A DNA stretch of 64,000 bases from contig JAYZQJ010000031.1 of the NCBI GenBank assembly GCA_036149055.1, forward strand, positions 1-64,000. Direction: 5' to 3'. The notes under the pieces were generated by a model that saw only the letters and a program-made list of their open reading frames with translations, was not told where the DNA came from and ran no database searches. The first letter of the stretch is position 1. Each line of letters starts with the position of its first letter. The DNA comes from Myxococcota bacterium. GTDB lineage: Bacteria > Myxococcota_A > Polyangia > Polyangiales > Sandaracinaceae. The position numbers were made by a program, and so were the translations under genes. Below, piece after piece: positions 4,895 through 21,100 of the stretch.

Positions 4895-6550
4895 ATGTGG
4901 TCGACCCGCGTGACGCTCGCCCTCGCCCTCTTCGGCTGCTGCCTGACCGGCTGTGGAGCCAGCCCGGCGCCCACCCCTCGACACGCGCCGGTCGGGACGA
5001 GCGACGCCGCCCCCACGCCCGCGGTCGAGCGGCGCGCCGCGACGATGGGGACCCAGCGCGCGGAGCTGACCGCGGCCGACCCGATCAACGACGGGCAGGC
5101 CCACTACCACGTCTGGCAGCTCGAGCTGGACGGCAGCCAGCGGGTGCGGGTCCGCATGCGCAGCGGCGCGCTCGACCCGCTGATGGAGATCCGCGGACCG
5201 GGCGAGCAGCGCCTCCGGAACGACGACGCGTTCCCGGGCACGCTCGAGGCGATGATCGACTTCCAGCCGGGTGAGCCCGGGGTCTACGAGATCTGGACGA
5301 CCACCTACGCGGCTGGCCAGACCGGGCCCTACGACCTCAGCGTGGAGCCGGTCTCCCCCGAGGGCACCGGCCTCCCGCTGACCCTGGGCGAGGGGGCCGC
5401 GGCCGAGCTCGGGCAGCACTCGATCGACGGCCTGCCGGGGAGCTGGATCCGCTTCGAGGGTCAGGCGGGCAGCATCGTCCGGCTCCGCGTCACCTCGCAG
5501 GCCTTCGACACGATCGCGACGCTCATCGGCCCGGGCGGACAGACCTGGGTCAACGACGACGCCAACGACCTCGGCCCCGACGGCAGCGAGCGCGCGCTCG
5601 ACAGCACGGTCGTCGCCGCGCTGCCCCAGACGGGCGTCTACCAGCTCGTGGTGACGCCGTACGGGCGCGGGACCGGCGCGTTCGCGGTCCGGAGCGAGGT
5701 GCGGCCGCCGGTCGTGCTCGAGGACGGGCGGCGCCCCGAGGGGCTCGCGGGCGCGAACGGCGGCGGCCGGGTGCTCGGCGTGTTCGCCGGGATCACCGAG
5801 TACGAGACGCAGGGCCGGCTCTACGGCTGCGCCGACGACGCGCGCCTGCTGGCCGAGTCGATGCGCGCCGCGCACCTGCAGGACGAGTCCGATCAGGTCG
5901 TCCTCCCCGACGGGCTCGCCACCCGCGACGGCTTCCTGAGCGCGATCGCCCAGATGGCTCGCCAGTCGAGGCCGGAGGACGTGGTCGTGGTGTTCTTCAG
6001 CGGCCACGGCCAGCAGCAGCCCGACGGCGACGACGACGACGAGCTCGACGACCTCGACGAGACGATCGTGCTGCACGACGGCTCGCTGACCGACGACGAG
6101 GTGGTGGCCGCGCTCGACGGCGTGCAGGGCACGGTGCTGCTCGCGATCGACGCCTGCCACGCGGGCGGCTTCGCCGACGACTGGGTCCAGCGCCCGAACC
6201 GGATCGGCCTCTTCTCGAGCGACGAGGACGTGCTGAGCGACACCGCCGAGCCCCACCGCGCGGGCGGCTACCTCTCCTGGCACCTCCGGCGCGGGCTCCT
6301 CGGCGAGGCCGACAGCCGCCCCCGCGACGGCGTCCTGCACGCCGGCGAGCTCACCGACCATCTCTACGACGGCTTCGTCGCCGACCACGCCCTCATCAAC
6401 CCCGAGGACGAGCTCGACCGGGCCCAGCGCCTCGTCGTGCGGCGCGGCGCGGTGACCTGGGACCAGGTCCTCTGGGTCTACCCACGCAACCCGGATCTCT
6501 CCCTGCCCACGCTGCCGAGCCTCCCGCTCCAGAGCCCGCCCCCGGGTTGA
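4895..6550 (+). CDS. Lipoprotein with two PPC-like domains and a C-terminal caspase-family (peptidase C14) domain
   Basis: Lipobox LTG-C; NDD-containing beta-sandwich repeats; catalytic dyad motifs FFSGHG and IDACHAGG. Confidence 0.85.
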   Translation: MWSTRVTLALALFGCCLTGCGASPAPTPRHAPVGTSDAAPTPAVERRAATMGTQRAELTAADPINDGQAHYHVWQLELDGSQRVRVRMRSGALDPLMEIRGPGEQRLRNDDAFPGTLEAMIDFQPGEPGVYEIWTTTYAAGQTGPYDLSVEPVSPEGTGLPLTLGEGAAAELGQHSIDGLPGSWIRFEGQAGSIVRLRVTSQAFDTIATLIGPGGQTWVNDDANDLGPDGSERALDSTVVAALPQTGVYQLVVTPYGRGTGAFAVRSEVRPPVVLEDGRRPEGLAGANGGGRVLGVFAGITEYETQGRLYGCADDARLLAESMRAAHLQDESDQVVLPDGLATRDGFLSAIAQMARQSRPEDVVVVFFSGHGQQQPDGDDDDELDDLDETIVLHDGSLTDDEVVAALDGVQGTVLLAIDACHAGGFADDWVQRPNRIGLFSSDEDVLSDTAEPHRAGGYLSWHLRRGLLGEADSRPRDGVLHAGELTDHLYDGFVADHALINPEDELDRAQRLVVRRGAVTWDQVLWVYPRNPDLSLPTLPSLPLQSPPPG

Positions 6551-6617: not shown

Positions 6618-6995
6618 TCAGTTGCCGGCGGCGGTCACGATGTGGAGCGTGTACGCCCCGCGGCCGTCGCTGTAGGCGCAGGCCTGGATCGTGTAGTCAC
6701 CGGCCTCGGCGGCGGTGTGGTTGAGGCGCGCGTTGAGCCCCTCACCGTCGTCGTTGTAGCCGACCTCGGCGCCACCGTGGGTCACGGCGACGTAGTTGTC
6801 GTACTCGCTGTCCATGTCGGCCCGAATCGTCCAGCCCTCACCGACGCTCACGTCGTAGCTGTCACACTTCTTGCCGTCGTACTCGGTGTCGCCGTCGGCG
6901 ATGTCACCGCTCTCGTTACGGTCAGCCGCTTCGTAGCTACCACCACAGGCGGCGAGCAGCGAGAGGGCCCCCAACACGATCAGAATGCGTCGCAT
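6618..6995 (-). CDS. Small PPC-domain lipoprotein
   Basis: Lipobox LAA-C; YNDDGEGLNARL..AGDYTI..GAYTL pattern; GGGAGA RBS. Confidence 0.8.
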   Translation of the reverse strand: MRRILIVLGALSLLAACGGSYEAADRNESGDIADGDTEYDGKKCDSYDVSVGEGWTIRADMDSEYDNYVAVTHGGAEVGYNDDGEGLNARLNHTAAEAGDYTIQACAYSDGRGAYTLHIVTAAGN

Positions 6996-7245: not shown

Positions 7246-8640
7246 TCAGGGAGCCGCGGGCGGCCCGACCAGCACGCCGCAGCGGACCCAGTCACCGCTC
7301 ACCATCGGGTCCTGCGAGCCCTTGGTCAGGCGCAGGAGGTAGGTCCCGGCCGCGCTGACCGAGGCCTCCTCGATGGCGACGCCCTCGGTGGCCGACTCGC
7401 TGTCCATCTCGATGACGGTGGTCCCGGTCGAGTCGGTGAGGGCGGCCTGGAGGCCGACCACGCCCGAGCCGGCGGTGCGCGAGCCGCAGAAGATGCTCAC
7501 GACCTCGGTCGCGTCGGTGACCTCGAGGGAGAAGAAGTCCGTGTCTCCGTCGCCGACGTTGGCGCCGATGAAGGCGCGCTCCGCGCCCGGCACGCCCATG
7601 ACCGCCTCGAAGCTGAGCGCCTCGGGGGTGGCGGCGACGCCGTTGGTCGCCTCCATGGTCTCCGCCGGGTTGTCGACCCGACCGCGGAACATCTTCAGGA
7701 CGTAGAAGTCGGCCGCGCCGGCGCTGCCGCCGTGGTCGATCCAGAGGAGGTAGTCGCCCTCGGGGAGCGGCGGGTTGAGGCCGTCGAGCGCCGACGGGTC
7801 GATGCGCGCGATGACGTCCGAGCCGTCCGCGTTGGTGATCCAGATGGCGTTCGGGGTGACCGTCGAGCCGTTGCCGTCGGTGCCCACCGGCATCGGAATC
7901 ACGCGCGCGGCGACGCGCCCGGGGGTGATGCTGAAGGAGAAGACGTCGACGTCGGAGCCGTCGCGGAAGTCGCCCGCGATGATGCCGAAGTCGCTCGCCA
8001 TGCCCATGGTGTCGGCCGCGAAGCCGAGCGCGGTCGCGCTGGCCGCGTCGTCACCGCTCTCCGGATCGCCGGTCACCGCCTCGGCGTCGAAGTTCAGGCC
8101 GCCGATGGAGAGCTCGTAGGTGAAGTCGGCCTGACCCTCGGGGGTCTCGCCGGCCCACGTCGACCACTCCTGCACGAGCACGTAGTAGGTGCCGTCCGCC
8201 GGGAGCTGCGTGATGATCTCGCTGTCCGTGTTGACGCGCGGCTGCCCATCGTCGTTCTCGGCGATCTGGTTCATCGCGCTGTCGTAGAGGGTGATGACGG
8301 TGTCGACCATCTCGGGGTCGTCGTCGGCGTTGGCCTCGGTGCTCAGGATGACCCAAGCGCCGGCGGCACCTTCGAACGAGTAGTAGTCGAGGTCGCCGGG
8401 CTCGCCGATGGCGCCCATCGCCATGCCCTCGGTGAGCGGGGTGGCGTCGGCGAACGTGTCGTTGCCGTCGCCCATCATGACGCCGCTGTCCGGGTCCGTC
8501 GTCCCGGTGTCCGGATCCATCATGGTCCCGGTGTCGGGCATGTCCGTGCCGCTGTCGGGATCGCCCGCGCCGTCGTCACAGCCGAAGGCCAGCGCGCTGG
8601 CCAGAAGGAGAGTCGTCCAAGTCAGGTTTCTCATGTTCAC
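7246..8640 (-). CDS. Acidic lipoprotein with repeated PPC-like domains
   Basis: Lipobox AFG-C; PDSG/PDTG linker; GDLDYYSF, DVDVFSF and DTDFFSL repeats; AENDD motif; GAGGTG RBS. Confidence 0.8.
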   Translation of the reverse strand: MNMRNLTWTTLLLASALAFGCDDGAGDPDSGTDMPDTGTMMDPDTGTTDPDSGVMMGDGNDTFADATPLTEGMAMGAIGEPGDLDYYSFEGAAGAWVILSTEANADDDPEMVDTVITLYDSAMNQIAENDDGQPRVNTDSEIITQLPADGTYYVLVQEWSTWAGETPEGQADFTYELSIGGLNFDAEAVTGDPESGDDAASATALGFAADTMGMASDFGIIAGDFRDGSDVDVFSFSITPGRVAARVIPMPVGTDGNGSTVTPNAIWITNADGSDVIARIDPSALDGLNPPLPEGDYLLWIDHGGSAGAADFYVLKMFRGRVDNPAETMEATNGVAATPEALSFEAVMGVPGAERAFIGANVGDGDTDFFSLEVTDATEVVSIFCGSRTAGSGVVGLQAALTDSTGTTVIEMDSESATEGVAIEEASVSAAGTYLLRLTKGSQDPMVSGDWVRCGVLVGPPAAP

Positions 8641-8730: not shown

Positions 8731-9342
8731 ATGGCCCGACGGGAGATCGTCCTCACCTACGGCGAAGAGCAGACCGCCTTCAAGTTCACGCGCGTCGACC
8801 GCAGCAAGCTCTACGGTCGAAAGGAGCGCGTGATCCTCGACGAAGACGGCGAGCGCTGCGTCCCCGCCTACCTCACCCACGACGGCGCGGCGCTCGTCCC
8901 CCCGGGCGGCACCGCGCACATCTACGTCGACGAGGCGTTCGACACGGTCGAGCGCTCGGACCTGAAGGCGGTCGACGACGAGGGCGAGCCGCTCGAGCCC
9001 TACGCCTCGACCCTGGGAGAGCCGCAGCCGCTGACGCCGGTCGATCCCGCGCGGGTCCTCGACTGCCTCGTGACCAGCGTCTACGAGCTCGCGGCCGAGG
9101 AGCTGGGCGCGGCGCTGAAGAAGTCCCTCGACGACGGCGACCTCTTCGAGAGCGTCTACAACTACCGCGAAGGCTACGACCCCGACGTGCTCTTCTTGCT
9201 GAAGAACGACGAGGGGATCTTCGCCCTGGTCGCCAAGGAGACCGGCTTCGAATTCCTGACCCGCGAGGCCCCCGAGGCCGACGACGAGGACGAGGACGAG
9301 GTCGACGAGCTCGATGACGATCTCGACTTCTCGATGATGTGA
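8731..9342 (+). CDS. Hypothetical protein, candidate divergent Ku-like subunit A with acidic C-terminal tail
   Basis: Clean coding pattern; first gene of an operon with a DNA ligase; segments resemble the Ku core by eye; ends DDEDEDEVDELDDDLDFSMM. Confidence refers mainly to the CDS; the Ku call is inferred. Confidence 0.65.
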   Translation: MARREIVLTYGEEQTAFKFTRVDRSKLYGRKERVILDEDGERCVPAYLTHDGAALVPPGGTAHIYVDEAFDTVERSDLKAVDDEGEPLEPYASTLGEPQPLTPVDPARVLDCLVTSVYELAAEELGAALKKSLDDGDLFESVYNYREGYDPDVLFLLKNDEGIFALVAKETGFEFLTREAPEADDEDEDEVDELDDDLDFSMM

Positions 9343-9352
9343 GAGGACGCCG

Positions 9353-10078
9353 ATGCCCCGCCTGATTTCCATCATGGACGCGAAGAAGCGAGACGCTCAG
9401 ATCGAGGTCGACTCGCCGAAGAAGAAGGAGCGTCACCGCTACGTCGACCCGGCCGGCAACCCGGTGCAGCACCAGCGCGTCATCAAGGGCACCGAGAAGA
9501 CGACCTACGAGGCGCTCGTGGCCGAGGCCGGCGATCCGGACGCGCTCGCGCAGGCGCTGATCGACGGCGACCCCGAGCTCGATCTCGATCAGGTCGGCCG
9601 GCGCCTCGCCCACACCTCCCGCGTCTACCTCGGCCCCGCCGGCAACGTGCTCTACGTCGCGCGCATCCTGAAGGTCGTCTACGACGCCAAGGGCGAGGAG
9701 CAGAGCCGCGAGGACTTCGTGGACGTCGAGGCCACGGTCGGCGAGGAGCTGCCGCCGATCCCCTGGACCGGCCGGCTCATGCCGATCGACACGGTGATCC
9801 GGCGCTTCGCCTTCGTGCGCAAGCTGCAGCTGCGTCACGTCAACGGGCTGACCTTCGACTTCCTCTACGAGATCGCCGAGGCGCTCCAGAAGGAGAACAA
9901 GCTGATGCTCGTCGGCGCCGGCAAGAAGGGGCAGAGCCCGCTGATCTTCCAGACCAACGGCACCCCCTTCCGCGGCTTCCTCGAGGGCCGCGTGCAGGAC
10001 GGCGGCTACCGCCTGGTGCTGCACCTCTCCAACCTCGAGATCAAGCGCGTGACCGAAGACGAAGAGGAGGCGGGCTGA
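9353..10078 (+). CDS. Hypothetical protein, candidate divergent Ku-like subunit B
   Basis: GAGAGGA RBS; RYVDPAGNPVQHQRV..TTYEALV and FVRKLQL..IAEALQKENKL..LVLHLSNLEIK resemble bacterial Ku blocks; TGATG overlap with the ligase gene. Confidence 0.65.
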   Translation: MPRLISIMDAKKRDAQIEVDSPKKKERHRYVDPAGNPVQHQRVIKGTEKTTYEALVAEAGDPDALAQALIDGDPELDLDQVGRRLAHTSRVYLGPAGNVLYVARILKVVYDAKGEEQSREDFVDVEATVGEELPPIPWTGRLMPIDTVIRRFAFVRKLQLRHVNGLTFDFLYEIAEALQKENKLMLVGAGKKGQSPLIFQTNGTPFRGFLEGRVQDGGYRLVLHLSNLEIKRVTEDEEEAG

Positions 10079-11580
10079 TGCTCTGGTCCGAGAGCTGGTC
10101 GGGCTACGCCGACGGAAAGCGCGCCCCGGTCGGGGGGCTCGCCGACGAGGCGCTCGCGAAGCGGCTGCGCATCTACAAGCGGCAGGTCGCCAAGCGCTAC
10201 CGGGTGATCGATCCCGAGCAGATCGAGCGCCTCCTGACGCAGGGCCCCTATCACATCTCCACCAAGCTCGACGGCGAGCTCTGGTTCCTCGTCAAGCGCG
10301 AGGGCGAGGTCGCGCTCTGCGCCTACAACGGCCGGGTCCTCATGGGCACGCCGCTCGCGAAGGAGGCCGCCGAGCGCCTCGCGGACGCGGGCGACGTGAT
10401 CCTCGCCGGGGAGCTGGTGGCGGAGCCGGAGAGCGGCAGCGGCCGCGCGCGCGTGCACCACGTGGCCACCGCGCTCGGCGCGGACGAGCTCGAGAAGACG
10501 CTGTCCTTCCACGCCTTCGACCTCGTCGAGGACGACGGCAAGGACACGCTGCTCGTCGACTACGACGCGCGCGTCAGCCGCATGAGCGAGCTGCTCGGCG
10601 AGGGCGGCCGGGTGCGCGTCGCCGAGACGGTGGTCGGGGAGCCCGCGGACGTCGTCCGCCTCTACCGCGAGTGGGTCGTCTCCGATCGCTTCGAGGGCCT
10701 GGTGGTGCGCTCGGAGCGGGGGCTCACCTACAAGATCAAGAGCACCCTGACCCTCGACGCGGTGGTGATCGCCTTCGGCGAGCGCATCACCGGCGACGTG
10801 CACCAGGTGCGCGAGATGAGCGTCGCGCTCATGCGGGACGACGGAACCTTCCAGCTGCTCGGCGCGGTCGGCAACGGCCTGAGCGAGCAGGATCGCGCCG
10901 ACTGGTTCCAGCGCCTCTCCCCGATGCAGGTCGAGAGCCGCTTCCGGCTCGCCAACCGCGAGGGCACGCTGAGCCAGTTCGTCGCGCCGAAGATCGTGGT
11001 CGAGGTGCGCTGCTCGGATCTCCTCGCCTCCGACAGCTGGGACGCCCCCATCCGCCGGATGAGCCTGCGCTACACCGAGAACAAGGGCTGGGAGCCGATC
11101 CGCGAGACGCCGACCGCGGTGATGATCCACCCGATCTTCCTACGCGAGCGCACCGACAAGGCGGTCGACGTCGAGAGCATCGGCATGACCCAGATCACCA
11201 GCCGCGTGCCGCTCTCCACGCCCGAGGAGCAGGCGGCGCCGGTGGAGCAGAAGCCGGCCGAGGTCGTGCGACGCGCGGTGTTCACCAAGACGACCAAGGG
11301 CAAGGTCGCCGTGCGCAAGTACATGATCGTCGACACGAACAAGGGCGACGCCCGCGGCTACCCGCCCTTCGTGACCTTCTTCACCGACTACTCCGCCGGG
11401 CGAAAGGAGCCCCTCCAGACCGCGCTCCGCACCGCGAGCGACATGGAGAAGGCGGAGGCTCAGGTGGTCGAGTGGATGGGCAAGAACATCAAGCGCGGCT
11501 GGGGCGAGGAGGAGCAGGCCCGGGTCGGCGACCTGGTCCCTCCGCCGCCCGACGCCGCGAAGATTCTGGCGAAGAAGTAG
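10078..11580 (+). CDS. ATP-dependent DNA ligase-like protein (adenylation domain + OB fold + WGR-like C-terminal domain)
   Basis: Motif I KLDGE, III LAGEL, IIIa FHAFDLV, IV EGLVVR, V YKIK; OB features LDAVVIA, VGNGLS, PKIVVEV; motif VI HPIFLRERTDK. Confidence 0.85.
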   Translation: MLWSESWSGYADGKRAPVGGLADEALAKRLRIYKRQVAKRYRVIDPEQIERLLTQGPYHISTKLDGELWFLVKREGEVALCAYNGRVLMGTPLAKEAAERLADAGDVILAGELVAEPESGSGRARVHHVATALGADELEKTLSFHAFDLVEDDGKDTLLVDYDARVSRMSELLGEGGRVRVAETVVGEPADVVRLYREWVVSDRFEGLVVRSERGLTYKIKSTLTLDAVVIAFGERITGDVHQVREMSVALMRDDGTFQLLGAVGNGLSEQDRADWFQRLSPMQVESRFRLANREGTLSQFVAPKIVVEVRCSDLLASDSWDAPIRRMSLRYTENKGWEPIRETPTAVMIHPIFLRERTDKAVDVESIGMTQITSRVPLSTPEEQAAPVEQKPAEVVRRAVFTKTTKGKVAVRKYMIVDTNKGDARGYPPFVTFFTDYSAGRKEPLQTALRTASDMEKAEAQVVEWMGKNIKRGWGEEEQARVGDLVPPPPDAAKILAKK

Positions 11581-15157: not shown

Positions 15158-16549
15158 TCACGCGTGCCGGAGGTGGAAGGACTTCGGCCGGGTGAGGTAC
15201 GCGTAGCCCAGCCTGGAGAGGGTGCAGCCGCGTCCGGAGTCCTTCACGCCCACCCAGGCCAGCTCCGGGTCCAGGTAATCGCAGCGGTTCATGAACACGG
15301 TGCCGGTCTCGAGCCGGTCTCCGATGGAGGACGCGGCGTCGAGGTCCTCGGTGTAGATGGCGGCGGTCAGGCCGAAGCGGCTGTCGTTCATGAGCCGCAC
15401 CGCCTCCTCGTCGTCCTTCACCTTCATCACGCCGACGACCGGGCCGAAGGTCTCCTCGCGCATCAGCTCCATGTCGTGGGTGACGTCGACCAGGAGCTGC
15501 GGCGCGAGGTAGGGGTCGCCCTTCTCCGCCGCGATCGGGAAGCGCGCCGCGTCGACGAGCGGCCGGGCCCCCGCCGCGACCGCCGCCTCGATCTGGGCGC
15601 GGATGCCCTCGGCCGCCTTCGCGCGGACCACCGGGCCGAGGTTCGTCTCCGCCTGGGTCGGGTCCCCGAGGCGGTAGGCCTCGACCAGCGCCCGCGCCTT
15701 CTCGACGAACGCGTCGTACGCCGCCTCGTGCACGTAGATGCGCTCGATGCCGCAGCAGCTCTGCCCGCTGTTGAAGAAGGCGCCGTCGATCAGCCCCTCG
15801 GCCGCCTTCTCGGGATCGGCGTCCGCCCGCACGTAGCCGGGGTCCTTGCCGCCGAGCTCGAGGCCGACGCCGACGAAGCGATCGCTCGACGCGCGCTCCA
15901 CCGCGTGGCCGCCCGGCACGCTCCCGGTGAAGGCGACGAAGCCGACCCGCGGATCCGCCACCGCCTCGGCGACGCGATCGTGGCTCATGTGCAAGAAGTC
16001 GAAGACGCCCGGCTCGATGCCGGCCGCCCGCGCGTGCTCCACCATGCGCTCGGAGACGAGCGGCGTCTGATCGCTGTGCTTCAGCACCACCGCGTTGCCG
16101 GCCATCAGCGCCGGCACCACCGCGTTGACCGCGGTCAGCCACGGGTAGTTCCAGGGCGCGAGCACGAGCACGACGCCGAGCGGCTCGCGGCGGATGAAGC
16201 GCGTGAAGCCGTCCTTCTGCGGCACCTCGACGTCGCGCAGCTCCTCCAGCCCCAGCCGGATCATCGTGCGCGCCCGGTCTTCGAACCCGCCGACCTCGCC
16301 CGGCGTCTGGGAGATCGGCCGCCCCATCTGCCAGGTCAGCTCCTCGGCGATCCGCGCTTTGTCCGCGACCACCGCGTCGACGAACGCGCTCAGCCGCTCC
16401 GCGCGCTTCTCCCTCGAGGTCTCCCGCCACCCCCGCTGCGCCTCCTCGGCGCGCGAGAGCGTCTCGTTCAGCTCGCCCGCCGAGGCGAGCGGGCGCTCCA
16501 CGTAGATCGAGCCATCCACGGGCGACACGGTCCGAAGCTTCTCCGTCAT
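15158..16549 (-). CDS. NAD(P)-dependent aldehyde dehydrogenase
   Basis: APWNYP, FTGS, LELGGKDP, FFNSGQSCC and EETFGP motifs. The upstream ORF extension runs into repeats, so the start was placed at MTEKLRT. Confidence 0.9.
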   Translation of the reverse strand: MTEKLRTVSPVDGSIYVERPLASAGELNETLSRAEEAQRGWRETSREKRAERLSAFVDAVVADKARIAEELTWQMGRPISQTPGEVGGFEDRARTMIRLGLEELRDVEVPQKDGFTRFIRREPLGVVLVLAPWNYPWLTAVNAVVPALMAGNAVVLKHSDQTPLVSERMVEHARAAGIEPGVFDFLHMSHDRVAEAVADPRVGFVAFTGSVPGGHAVERASSDRFVGVGLELGGKDPGYVRADADPEKAAEGLIDGAFFNSGQSCCGIERIYVHEAAYDAFVEKARALVEAYRLGDPTQAETNLGPVVRAKAAEGIRAQIEAAVAAGARPLVDAARFPIAAEKGDPYLAPQLLVDVTHDMELMREETFGPVVGVMKVKDDEEAVRLMNDSRFGLTAAIYTEDLDAASSIGDRLETGTVFMNRCDYLDPELAWVGVKDSGRGCTLSRLGYAYLTRPKSFHLRHA

Positions 16550-16639
16550 GGCCCCATTTCTAACCGCGCCGGCCCCTTCGTACGAGGGGTCGTTCGGCGA
16601 ATTGCGCCGTTCGGCAGTGGCGCGCGCCAAGCCGCTCGC

Positions 16640-17490
16640 GGGCTCGACCGAGCGCGGGTCGGCAGCTTCGAGTTTTTGCTCTCGCCAAGCCGCCAAGCCG
16701 CAAAGAGACGGACGGGCCGCGCGATGGAGGCTCGCCGCCGGGGGCTCGAACGAGCGCGGGTCGGCAGCTGCTTTTTCTCTCGCAGAGACGCAGAGACGCA
16801 GAGAGAGAGCGGGCCGCGGGATGGAGGCTCGCCGCCGGGCGCTCGGACGAGCGCGGCGCGTGAGTAGCAATTTTGCTCTCGCCAAGCCGCCAAGCCGCAA
16901 AGGGGCGGACGGGCCGCGCGATGGAGGCTCGCCGCCGGGGGCTCGGACGAGCGCGGGTCGGCAGCTGCTTTTTCTCTCGCAGAGACGCAGAGACGCAGAG
17001 ACGCAGAGAGAGAGCGGGCCGCGGGATGGGCGCTCGCCGCCAGGTGCCGAGCGGCGCGCGGGCCCTCCCCACGAGGCCAGCCAGCCCAGCCCCGGCGAGC
17101 CGCCACCCCGCCGCCCCCCCCCTTGCCGGCTTGGCGGCTTTGCGCGAGCCCATCACCCCCACGCGCACCTGATCTGACACCACTCCGAGCGGCAGCCAGC
17201 CCAGCCCCGGCGAGCGACCACCCCGCCGCCACCCAGCCCCTTGGCGGCTTGGCGGCTTTGCGAGAGCCCATCACCCCCAAACGAACCTGATCGGACACCA
17301 CTCCGAGCGTCGGCCTACCGAGCCTCGGCGAGCCGCCACCCCGCCGCCCCTCTGCGACTCTGCGTCTCTGCGAGAGACCTGTTCGACCCAGTCACCACTC
17401 CGAGCGGCAGCCCGCCCAGCCCCGGCGAGCCGCCACCCCGCGGCCACCCAGCCCCTTGGCGGCTTGGCGGCTTTGCGAGAGCCCATCACC
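16640..17490. repeat. Cluster of eight REP-like units (family 2): four forward then four inverted
   Basis: Cores CTCTCGCCAAGCCGCCAAGCCGCAAAG or CTCTCGCAGAGACGCAGAGACGCAGAG at about 16679, 16777, 16876 and 16974; inverted cores at about 17122, 17240, 17350 and 17455; linkers also repeat. Confidence 0.9.
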
Positions 17491-18946: not shown

Positions 18947-20428
18947 TCAGTTCTTGTCCAGCTTACCCACGAGGGAGAGCGTGAAGCTCGCGCCCATGTA
19001 CTTGAAGTGGGGCCGGACCTTGAGACCGCAGCGGTACCAGCCGGGCTGCCCCTCGACGTCCTCGACCACGATCTGCGCGGCGCGGAGCGGCTTGCGGGAG
19101 CGGACGGCGGGAGCCGGGTTCTCCATGTCCACCACGTACTGGCGGATCCAGTTGTTGAGCTCGCGCTCGAGATCCGCGCGCTCCTTCCACGTCCCGATCT
19201 GCTCGCGCTGCATCACCTTCAGGTAGTGAGACAGGCGGGTGATGATGAACATGTAGGGGAGCTGGGTGCCGAGGCGGTAGTTGGTCTCCGCCTCCTTGCC
19301 CTCGGGCGTGTTGGCGAAGATCTTCGGCTTCTGCGCGCTGTTCGCGGAGAAGAACGCCGCGTTGTCGCTGTCCTTGCGGAACGTGAGGCCGATGAAGCCC
19401 TGCTCGCTCATCTCGTACTCGCGACGCTCGGTGAGCTGCACCTCGGTCGGGCACTTGGTCTGGATCTCGCCCATCGCCTCGTACTGGTGGAGCGGCAGGT
19501 TCTCCACCGCGCCGCCCGCCTGCGGGCCGATGATGTTCGGGCACCAGCGGTACTTGGCGAACGAGTCGGCCACGCGCGTCGCCATCGCGATCGCGGTGTG
19601 ACCCCAGAGGTACTTGTCGTGGTCCCCGACGACCTCCTCCTTGAAGTTGAAGGACTTCACGGGGATGGTGTCCGGGCCGTAGGGCAGCCGGAGGAGGAAG
19701 CGCGGCGCGCAGAGGCCGACGTAGCGGCTGTCCTCGCTCTCGCGGAAGCTGTGCCAGCGCGCGTACTGCGGGCCCTCGAAGAGGCTCTGCAGATCCTTGA
19801 GCTTCGGCAGCTCCTGGTAGCTCTCGCAGCCGAACATGTCGGGCGCGACGTTCGAGAGGAAGGGCGCGTGCGACATCGCCGAGACGCTGGCGATGTTCTG
19901 CAGGAGCTGCATGTCCTGCGGGCCCGGGCCGAACTCGTAGTTGCCGACGAGGCAGCCGAAGGGCTTGCCGCCGAAGGTGCCGTACTCGTTCGAGTAGACG
20001 TGCTTGTAGAGGCCCGACTTCACGATCTCCGGGCTGTCCTCGAAGTCCTCGAGGAGCTGCTCCTTGGAGACGTTGAGGATCGAGACCCGGACGTTCTCGC
20101 GGAAGTTGACGTTGTCGATGAGGTACTTGAGACCCCGCCACGTCGACTCGAGCTTCTGGAGCTGCGGGTGGTGGAGGATCGTGTTGATCTGCGCGCTCAT
20201 GCGCTGATCGATCTCGGAGATCATCGCGTCGACCACCGCCTTGTCCACGCGCTCGCCCTTGCGGGAGGGCGCGAGCATCTCGGTGATGAACGCCTGGATG
20301 CCGCGGCGCGCGACGTCGTACGTCTCGTCCTCCGGCTTGATCTTCGCTTCCGCGAGCATGCTCTCGAGGAGGCTCGCGTCCTCGGCGAGGGCCTCTGCGC
20401 CCTCCGCTGCAGTCTGTTCTTCAGCCAT
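18947..20428 (-). CDS. tssC: T6SS contractile sheath large subunit
   Basis: ILHHPQLQKLESTWRGL, EYGTFGG, FRESEDSRYVGL, RFLLRLPYG and HYLKVMQREQIG motifs. Confidence 0.97.
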   Translation of the reverse strand: MAEEQTAAEGAEALAEDASLLESMLAEAKIKPEDETYDVARRGIQAFITEMLAPSRKGERVDKAVVDAMISEIDQRMSAQINTILHHPQLQKLESTWRGLKYLIDNVNFRENVRVSILNVSKEQLLEDFEDSPEIVKSGLYKHVYSNEYGTFGGKPFGCLVGNYEFGPGPQDMQLLQNIASVSAMSHAPFLSNVAPDMFGCESYQELPKLKDLQSLFEGPQYARWHSFRESEDSRYVGLCAPRFLLRLPYGPDTIPVKSFNFKEEVVGDHDKYLWGHTAIAMATRVADSFAKYRWCPNIIGPQAGGAVENLPLHQYEAMGEIQTKCPTEVQLTERREYEMSEQGFIGLTFRKDSDNAAFFSANSAQKPKIFANTPEGKEAETNYRLGTQLPYMFIITRLSHYLKVMQREQIGTWKERADLERELNNWIRQYVVDMENPAPAVRSRKPLRAAQIVVEDVEGQPGWYRCGLKVRPHFKYMGASFTLSLVGKLDKN

Positions 20429-20454
20429 GTTCTTCTACCCCAACTCGTGAGTGC

Positions 20455-20958
20455 CTATTCGTCGCCGCCCTCGTCGTCACCCATGCCGAGCTCCTTCATG
20501 AGGCGCTCGCGGGCGGCGTCGTCCCCGAGGAGTCCCTGGATCTTCTTCCGGAACTTCGGGATGTTCCCGAGCGGGCCCTTGAGGGCCGTCAACGCGCTGC
20601 GCAGCTGCATGAGCTGCCGGAGCTCCGGCACCTGCTCGGCGATGCCCTCGGGGGTGAAGTCCTTCAAGCCGTTGAACTTGAGGCTCACCGCCATCTCGGA
20701 GCCATCATCGCCCGACAGCTTGTCGTCGACGGTGAGGTCGAGCGACAGGTTGTGCTCGGCCATCACCTCGTTGAAGTTGTCCTTGTCGATGTTGATCGGC
20801 TTGCGCTCTTCGAGGGGCGTCTCGTCCGGCTTCCCGGTGTAGTCGCCCATCATCATGAAGCGGAGCGGAAGCTCGACCTCTTCCTGCTGATCGCCGGTGG
20901 CCGGCTTGTAGGTGATGTTCACGCGCTCCTTGGGAGCGACCGAGCCCTCTTTACCCAT
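20455..20958 (-). CDS. tssB: T6SS contractile sheath small subunit
   Basis: SVAPKERVNITY, ELPL..MGDY, IDKDNF and DFTPE..QVPEL motifs; AGGAG RBS. Confidence 0.97.
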   Translation of the reverse strand: MGKEGSVAPKERVNITYKPATGDQQEEVELPLRFMMMGDYTGKPDETPLEERKPINIDKDNFNEVMAEHNLSLDLTVDDKLSGDDGSEMAVSLKFNGLKDFTPEGIAEQVPELRQLMQLRSALTALKGPLGNIPKFRKKIQGLLGDDAARERLMKELGMGDDEGGDE

Positions 20959-21100
20959 CGCTTTGCTCTCCTATCTCTGGTTCCAGAGTGCTTTCACGAA
21001 GGGCCCACGAACGAACCGTGAGAGGCCCCCCTCTCAGCTGAACCCGCAGTGTGCCCAACTCGCGAGCGTTCGTGAAGCCCCGTCTTCGTGGCAATTGATC

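Follow-up and report, generated by a model that had tools for sequence, protein, structure and literature searches.

A candidate end-joining cassette of two predicted Ku-fold proteins and an ATP-dependent DNA ligase in Myxococcota

A three-gene cassette and its proposed function

Here, we report a three-gene unit at positions 8731 to 11580 of a 64,000-nucleotide stretch of Myxococcota DNA (contig JAYZQJ010000031.1 of assembly GCA_036149055.1, family Sandaracinaceae; the whole stretch is called the window below), which encodes two small proteins, open reading frame (ORF) 1 and ORF2, and a ligase, ORF3. With a probability of roughly 0.6, we read this cassette as a heterodimeric Ku that is invisible to Pfam and comes with a dedicated ligase for end joining. 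ORF1 and ORF2 would be anciently diverged Ku-fold paralogues, predicted by structural modeling to form an asymmetric Ku-like ring. Judged by Ku biology, this ring would load onto a double-stranded DNA end and hold it, and would recruit the co-translated ligase, probably by the D-F tail of ORF1 and/or the C-terminal domain of the ligase, because both subunits lack the C-terminal arm that canonical Ku uses with LigD. The ligase would then seal ends that need little processing, because there is no polymerase or phosphoesterase in the unit. The observed distribution suggests that the cassette takes the place of Ku-LigD across much of the phylum. [quoted passage not shown] The features of the unit are as follows; pLDDT is the predicted local distance difference test and E the expect value.

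8731 to 9342, forward strand: ORF1, predicted Ku-fold subunit A, 203 amino acids (ORF list, AlphaFold2 model)
9256 to 9339, forward strand: acidic C-terminal tail of ORF1 with a D-F-x(1-3) end, candidate docking peptide (homologue alignment; low pLDDT, about 60)
9343 to 9352, forward strand: intergenic gap, 10 nucleotides, with Shine-Dalgarno-like GAGG (sequence)
9353 to 10078, forward strand: ORF2, predicted Ku-fold subunit B, 241 amino acids, with the majority of conserved basic residues (AlphaFold2 model, alignment)
10078 to 11580, forward strand: ORF3, ATP-dependent DNA ligase by sequence, 500 amino acids (Pfam); its start overlaps the ORF2 stop (TGATG)
10222 to 10737, forward strand: ligase adenylation domain (PF01068, E 1.3e-10)
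10810 to 11160, forward strand: ligase OB-fold domain (PF04679, E 4.5e-9)
11254 to 11508, forward strand: ligase C-terminal domain, about 85 amino acids, cassette-specific, of no known family (profile searches, genome survey)

The layout that the first-pass annotation had described, a same-strand unit with a 10-nucleotide gap containing a ribosome-binding site and a TGATG overlap, is present in full, with the GAGG six bases before the ORF2 ATG inside the exact gap, and the peptide blocks quoted there for ORF1 and ORF2 all occur in the translations. Searches with the cassette proteins gave 135 and 879 homologues at E ≤ 0.001; because of these homologues and of the same gene order in more than 100 loci, we consider the genes real rather than chance ORFs. 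The nearest named relatives are Sandaracinaceae (Myxococcota) proteins, hypothetical wherever they are named.

Fold of ORF1 and ORF2

Neither ORF1 nor ORF2 matched a family in Pfam, NCBIfam, PADLOC, or PHROGs, and the canonical Ku model PF02735 matched neither of them nor any of 89 ORF2 homologues. AlphaFold2 models built on alignments of 98 (ORF2) and 97 (ORF1) homologues had mean pLDDT values of 94.7 and 89.1, respectively. When they were searched with Foldseek against the PDB, all of the matches listed (36/36 for ORF2 and 32/32 for ORF1) were Ku or Ku-containing entries, at 8–17% identity, in line with the likeness to Ku that the first-pass annotation had noted by eye. The best match was Mycobacterium tuberculosis Ku for ORF2 (9ig8, E 6.3e-6, template-modeling (TM) score 0.39) and Bacillus subtilis Ku for ORF1 (9vnq, E 8.2e-5, TM 0.44).

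Ku was also the top rank for both models in VIA, a structural aligner independent of Foldseek, with 48,161 chains ranked. The values for ORF2 were Z 11.9 against Ku80 (root-mean-square deviation (rmsd) 3.1, 124 residues aligned), Z 11.7 against M. tuberculosis Ku (rmsd 2.9, 114 aligned), and Z 11.2 against B. subtilis Ku (rmsd 4.0, 149 aligned), and the first unrelated fold appeared at Z 3.1. ORF1 gave Z 9.8 and 9.7 against B. subtilis and M. tuberculosis Ku (rmsd 6.1 and 6.2, with 155 and 163 aligned, respectively), followed by SPOC-type barrels at Z ≤8.3 (90–108 aligned) and unrelated folds at ≤3.8. In these models, both proteins have the split β-barrel of the Ku/SPOC type. The Ku bridge is well supported in the ORF1 model, because 155–163 of its residues align to bacterial Ku as compared with 90–108 to SPOC-type barrels; the Ku core with bridge comprises ORF1 residues 1–174. 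It is less sharply supported in ORF2, whose insertion is longer and where the basis is the 149 residues aligned to B. subtilis Ku and Foldseek alignments of about 250–270 columns. For both proteins, the structural match reaches no further than residue 174 of M. tuberculosis Ku and the chain finishes soon after, indicating that both are without the Ku C-terminal arm.

The two subunits were also compared with each other. The deeper hhalign profiles are collinear over 124 columns at a probability of only 31% (3–4% with shallow profiles). The parallel blocks proposed by eye in the first-pass annotation hold in part on this alignment: PVDPARVLD, SVYEL, and ALKKSL of ORF1 pair with LMPIDTV, RKLQL, and EIAEAL of ORF2, whereas YVDEAF does not pair with RYVDPAG and instead aligns to ORF2 residues ~92–107 (at the same 31%). 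Two other leads were set aside: TolC, the best match of the PDB profile sequence searches (E 0.02), was rejected as chance, and a beta-clamp lead from the ESM Atlas (0.80–0.81, all scores <0.9) received no support from the fold search.

Pairing of ORF1 and ORF2

Complex modeling covered the ORF1-ORF2 heterodimer as protein alone. The interface score ipSAE was 0.79 (runs 0.80, 0.78, and 0.79), compared with 0.00 for the best control; the mark set for this score is reached by 116 of 157 solved pairs and by 2 of 215 mismatched ones, and with custom alignments these counts are only approximate. The runs share at least 81% of contacts and have partner pLDDT of at least 76. The interface has 309–326 contacts spanning both bridge regions (ORF2 20–46 and 87–122; ORF1 20–88), and the C-terminal strand of each subunit swaps onto the barrel of its partner. 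ORF1 and ORF2 are thus predicted to pair as a heterodimer with interlocked bridges. Of the heterodimeric Ku-like clamp put forward in the first-pass annotation, the pairing comes out of the modeling clearly above controls; a Ku heterodimer in bacteria, however, had already been proposed (accessible part of PMC6379672).

The ligase

ORF3 is over the Pfam cut-offs for PF01068 (residues 49–220) and PF04679 (residues 245–361). The adenylation residues K63-D65-G66, E112, F147, E206-G207, and K219/K221 are each invariant in 70/70 homologues, and P352, R358, D360, and K361 of the OB domain are invariant as well; we take these residues to represent the nucleotidyltransferase motifs. Judged by its sequence, ORF3 is an ATP-dependent DNA ligase in which all catalytic motifs are kept. 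Pfam searches of ORF3 for the polymerase (POL, PF21686) and phosphoesterase (PE, PF13298) domains found none, and all LigD models stay far below their cut-offs (TIGR02779, 70.5 bits vs 227.75), so that the Pfam and NCBIfam scans agree with the earlier description of a ligase having neither POL nor PE.

For a quick tree, every third row of the 70 cassette ligases was taken (24 sequences) and combined with 22 ligases linked to Ku and with the two further ligases of the window's own genome. The cassette ligases lie on one side of a long branch, with a Shimodaira-Hasegawa-like approximate likelihood ratio test (SH-aLRT) value of 100, apart from the sampled LigD/LigB/LigC-type ligases; given its narrow outgroup and the meeting of long branches, the tree speaks for distinctness and not for origin. 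The C-terminal domain is found in 41 of 301 phylum genomes, each of which also has ORF1 or ORF2. It has no consistent Pfam match among 40 members and no PDB sequence match; hhalign against WGR (PF05406) gives 4.9% (E 0.008) with the terminal helix and GW/GY aligned, a weak lead only. In two instances, ORF2 is fused directly to this domain, i.e., L210:5572-6753 (genome G241) and protein P0308, and no cassette-type ligase core was found in the G241 genome.

Co-conservation and relation to canonical Ku-LigD

Locus counts were taken from 139 loci of three possibly overlapping searches, with short-flank loci excluded per count. ORF1 lies directly upstream of ORF2 in 108/114 loci (in 6/114 there is no adjoining ORF1), and the ligase lies directly downstream of ORF2 in 108/112; no conserved fourth gene is seen among 30 GTDB loci and the window. 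The pairwise identities of the three genes co-vary (Spearman 0.84–0.85, 79 loci). Among the 301 phylum genomes, 45 have ORF1, 42 have ORF2, 41 have the ligase tail, 39 have all three, and 46 have any of them. ORF1 is present in 41 of the 42 ORF2 genomes, the sole exception being a contig-edge fragment, and it is retained even where unlinked to ORF2 (two genomes, G073 and G168); one further genome, G154, holds a cassette remnant. The three genes that the first-pass annotation had grouped into one system are therefore co-conserved, in the same order in more than 100 loci. In a second phylum, the family was found in 9/251 genomes, one of them with a weak fragment only, and a search of the whole library gave 534 clusters at 50% identity.

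Canonical Ku is present in 62 of the 301 phylum genomes, and none of these is among the 46 with cassette genes. For ORF2, the overlap with Ku is 0 against 8.65 expected by chance, at a hypergeometric P of 2.7e-5, which is overstated because related genomes are not independent. In the window's own family (32 genomes, including the unpublished genome G023), ORF2 is in 28 and canonical Ku in 13. In the own genome, which is 96% complete, we found neither Ku (PF02735) nor PE; it contains two LigD-type polymerases and LigB-like and LigC-like ligases (labels are ours).

Points against the end-joining reading

Several of our observations weigh against the cassette being a heterodimeric Ku with an end-joining ligase. 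Profile alignment of ORF1 and ORF2 with 23 canonical Ku proteins by hhalign gives only 3.4% and 0.2%, the Foldseek matches are moderate (TM 0.34–0.50, E 1e-5 to 1e-3), and a SPOC domain reaches Z 10.9 with ORF2 in VIA, within 1 of the best Ku row. The complex score may stem from resemblance to Ku dimers of solved structure, and DNA is absent from all of the models. The ORF1 core is acidic, with a median charge of −11 compared with −4 for canonical Ku cores, which is odd for a DNA clamp. Partial cassettes occur, with ORF1 alone in G158 and no ligase core in G241. The near-exclusion from canonical Ku is softened by the relatedness of the genomes, and 12/32 own-family genomes hold both systems, so the replacement of Ku-LigD is not strict. 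Lastly, the cassette usually stands without known end-processing enzymes: LigD-type polymerase is absent in 39/41 and PE in 35/41 of the other ORF2 genomes, indicating that dirty ends could not be processed there by known NHEJ enzymes.

Alternative explanations

The best surviving alternative, which we regard as unlikely, is that the Ku-fold heterodimer serves a ligase that seals nicks or single-strand breaks as its clamp for loading or processivity, or has another end-related job, e.g., sealing after excision or recombination. The absence of end-processing enzymes from the unit and from most host genomes would fit such a role, as would the ligase's own branch apart from LigD. According to the available portion of PMC9638933, the ligase domain of M. 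tuberculosis LigD on its own seals nicks only. However, cassette and canonical Ku nearly exclude each other in the phylum sample, which suggests a shared job. Moreover, a closed Ku-type ring loads only via a free DNA end.

Slightly less probable still, in our estimate, is that the module has a role in conflict, capping or ligating the ends of DNA that is invading or mobile, either against phage or for end protection or circularization of a mobile element, like Mu Gam. In its favor is one genome, G076 (contig G076:C1, loci L176–L184), with at least nine complete dispersed copies of the cassette and 16 ligase-tail matches. Eight of the copies share 5–10 kb blocks at 87–98% identity; the surroundings resemble a prophage or an island, with genes for a terminase, a portal protein, and a serine recombinase next to the copies. 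In the two copies scanned, the ligase and an AAA ATPase form one protein (1033–1034 amino acids) with a ~280-amino acid middle region of no assigned family. The copies might represent a family of mobile elements, or an artefact of assembly; mobile-element carriage of the cassette in at least one clade is real. PADLOC matched 12 of 124 heuristically picked neighbors (52 loci, no background rate), several via generic domains, and 6 of these 12 come from four loci (L177, L184, L214, and L215) of the G076 clade and of relatives with long ligases. The cassette outside G076 is mostly single-copy, and in its own family it is single-copy, near-core (28/32), and ordinary in its neighborhood. None of the three cassette proteins, ORF1 and ORF2 included, matched PADLOC, ORF1 and ORF2 have no PHROG match, and word- or BLAST-limited searches of viral contigs, plasmids, and phages found no relatives. 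The anti-phage action that the first-pass annotation had allowed for thus finds little support in the gene neighborhood, and with a mostly single-copy cassette and few, partly generic PADLOC matches we treat defense as a minor rival. Long ligase frames also occur in relatives from another family (L214:5050-8331, 1094 amino acids; L215:4984-7536, 851 amino acids; L216:1650-3560, at least 637 amino acids), and AbiE and Fic genes adjoin two of these three loci.

A little more doubtful again is that ORF2 is a homodimeric Ku, which the acidic ORF1 would tune, block, or unload as its regulator or as an alternative subunit, instead of forming an obligatory half of the ring. The charges point this way: columns at least 60% basic number 14 in ORF2 and 6 in ORF1, and the ORF1 family has a median net charge of −19. 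ORF2 also stands without an adjoining ORF1 in 6/114 loci, and the complex test can be passed by close paralogues. A mere regulator, however, is hard to reconcile with the retention of ORF1 in 41/42 ORF2 genomes (the exception being the contig-edge fragment), with its full bridge and its nearly invariant basic residues R21, R24, K26, R75, and R146, or with the large reciprocal interface of the model. It is very improbable that ORF1 and ORF2 serve the ligase as protein adaptors, with SPOC-like barrels that do not encircle DNA: SPOC and related barrels reach Z 6.4–10.9, but the near full-length Foldseek alignments are to Ku only, the long insertion of ORF1 matches the Ku bridge, and the complex model shows interlocking bridges.

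In the favored end-joining reading, the tail of ORF1 is a candidate for recruiting the ligase. The acidic tail of ORF1 ends in D-F-x(1-3) in 93 of 97 aligned homologues, with F200 invariant and D199 nearly invariant. The acidic-hydrophobic tail of Ku80 binds DNA-PKcs, as stated in the part of PMC8549938 that is accessible; by analogy, we infer that the ORF1 tail may dock the ligase. Some ORF2 homologues bear Lys/Ala-rich tails, and the histone-like HC2 model is matched by 2 of 16 long ORF2 homologues examined, one of them over the cut-off. The tails of P0260, P0268, P0270, and P0271 are long and Lys/Ala-rich, and P0260 ends in a SAM domain.

Comparison with known systems and significance

The closest known system is the bacterial Ku homodimer (PF02735; PDB 9i91, 9vnq, and 8v53) with LigD, with which the cassette shares the barrel-and-bridge fold in the models and the operon with an ATP-dependent ligase of adenylation and OB domains. 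Unlike bacterial Ku, it has two different subunits that share 9–15% identity with Ku, that PF02735 misses, and that have no C-terminal arm; the minimal C-terminus of canonical Ku stimulates LigD, as far as the available text of PMC9638933 goes. Unlike LigD, its ligase falls below the LigD cut-offs, has no POL or PE, has an extra C-terminal domain, and sits on a separate branch of the tree. By sequence, the cassette family is outside Ku and LigD, yet by prediction it works like them.

The concept of a bacterial Ku heterodimer is not new. For Sinorhizobium meliloti, Ku3-Ku4 acting with LigD4 has been proposed as a heterodimer on genetic grounds, and these are, like ORF1 and ORF2, two co-occurring and usually operonic genes (PMC6379672, as accessible); Ku3 and Ku4 are recognizable Ku paralogues with LigD enzymes, whereas the cassette subunits and ligase appear as a separate lineage invisible to sequence searches. 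Adjacent canonical Ku pairs also exist in this phylum, a system distinct from the cassette and candidates for Ku3-Ku4-like heterodimers; they were seen at G001:C73, G004:C49, G005:C294, G035:C65, G051:C58, G057:C164, G215:C16, G229:C291, and G315:C109, and G001, G004, and G005 have such a pair plus a cryptic cassette.

Ku70/Ku80 is likewise a heterodimer of diverged Ku cores, and the acidic-hydrophobic tail of ORF1 resembles that of Ku80 (accessible part of PMC8549938); the cassette subunits differ from it by the absence of vWA, SAP, and helical C-terminal domains. We see no evidence of special kinship with Ku70/Ku80, and the tails may have become alike by convergence. The SPOC-type barrels (PHF3, SPOCD1, FPA, MED25 ACID, and INTS13/14; Z up to 10.9) have the same barrel as the cassette subunits and differ in having no bridge and in being eukaryotic adaptors, not partners of a ligase.

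We found no published description of the cassette, although supplementary tables and closed papers could still mention one; the accessible portions of PMC4889933, PMC11936186, and PMC11377751 contain none. Surveys of bacterial NHEJ rely on the Pfam Ku model, which overlooks this family, and the Ku survey PMC11936186, in its available part, trimmed its eukaryotic set by Pfam domain. In our phylum sample, 46 candidate genomes are added to the 62/301 with canonical Ku. If the cassette joins ends, then NHEJ is more widespread in bacteria than current estimates have it, and a three-protein kit of fewer than 950 residues could test what a Ku heterodimer adds over a homodimer and whether a ligase with no polymerase or phosphoesterase is sufficient. 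A compact end-joining tool for bacterial genome editing is a possible use.

Genomic surroundings in the window

The cassette is flanked by a divergent PPC-domain gene on one side and a convergent sugar-dehydrogenase-like gene on the other, and its G+C of 0.67–0.71 is like that of the surroundings. A scan for promoters and terminators turned up no sigma-70 promoter, and the single terminator-like site is at chance level. Contigs from RNA libraries lie over the cassette, one of them at 9273–11267; please note that this run covers 30/30 bins, so DNA carry-over is possible. Upstream are a protein with PPC and caspase domains (4895–6550, forward strand) and a PPC-repeat protein (7246–8640, reverse strand), which both accompany the cassette in only 5 of 31 closely related loci. 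Between them, a gene for a small predicted lipoprotein (6618–6995, reverse strand) has deep contigs in 4/4 RNA-library runs, where contig depth cannot rank genes. Further downstream, at 16546–17301, the same peptide blocks recur in overlapping junk ORFs, two or three times over, hinting at an array of non-coding repeats; the gene downstream of it is presumably aldehyde-dehydrogenase-like. At 19001–21000, the G+C drops to 0.63–0.67, compared with ~0.72 over the window.

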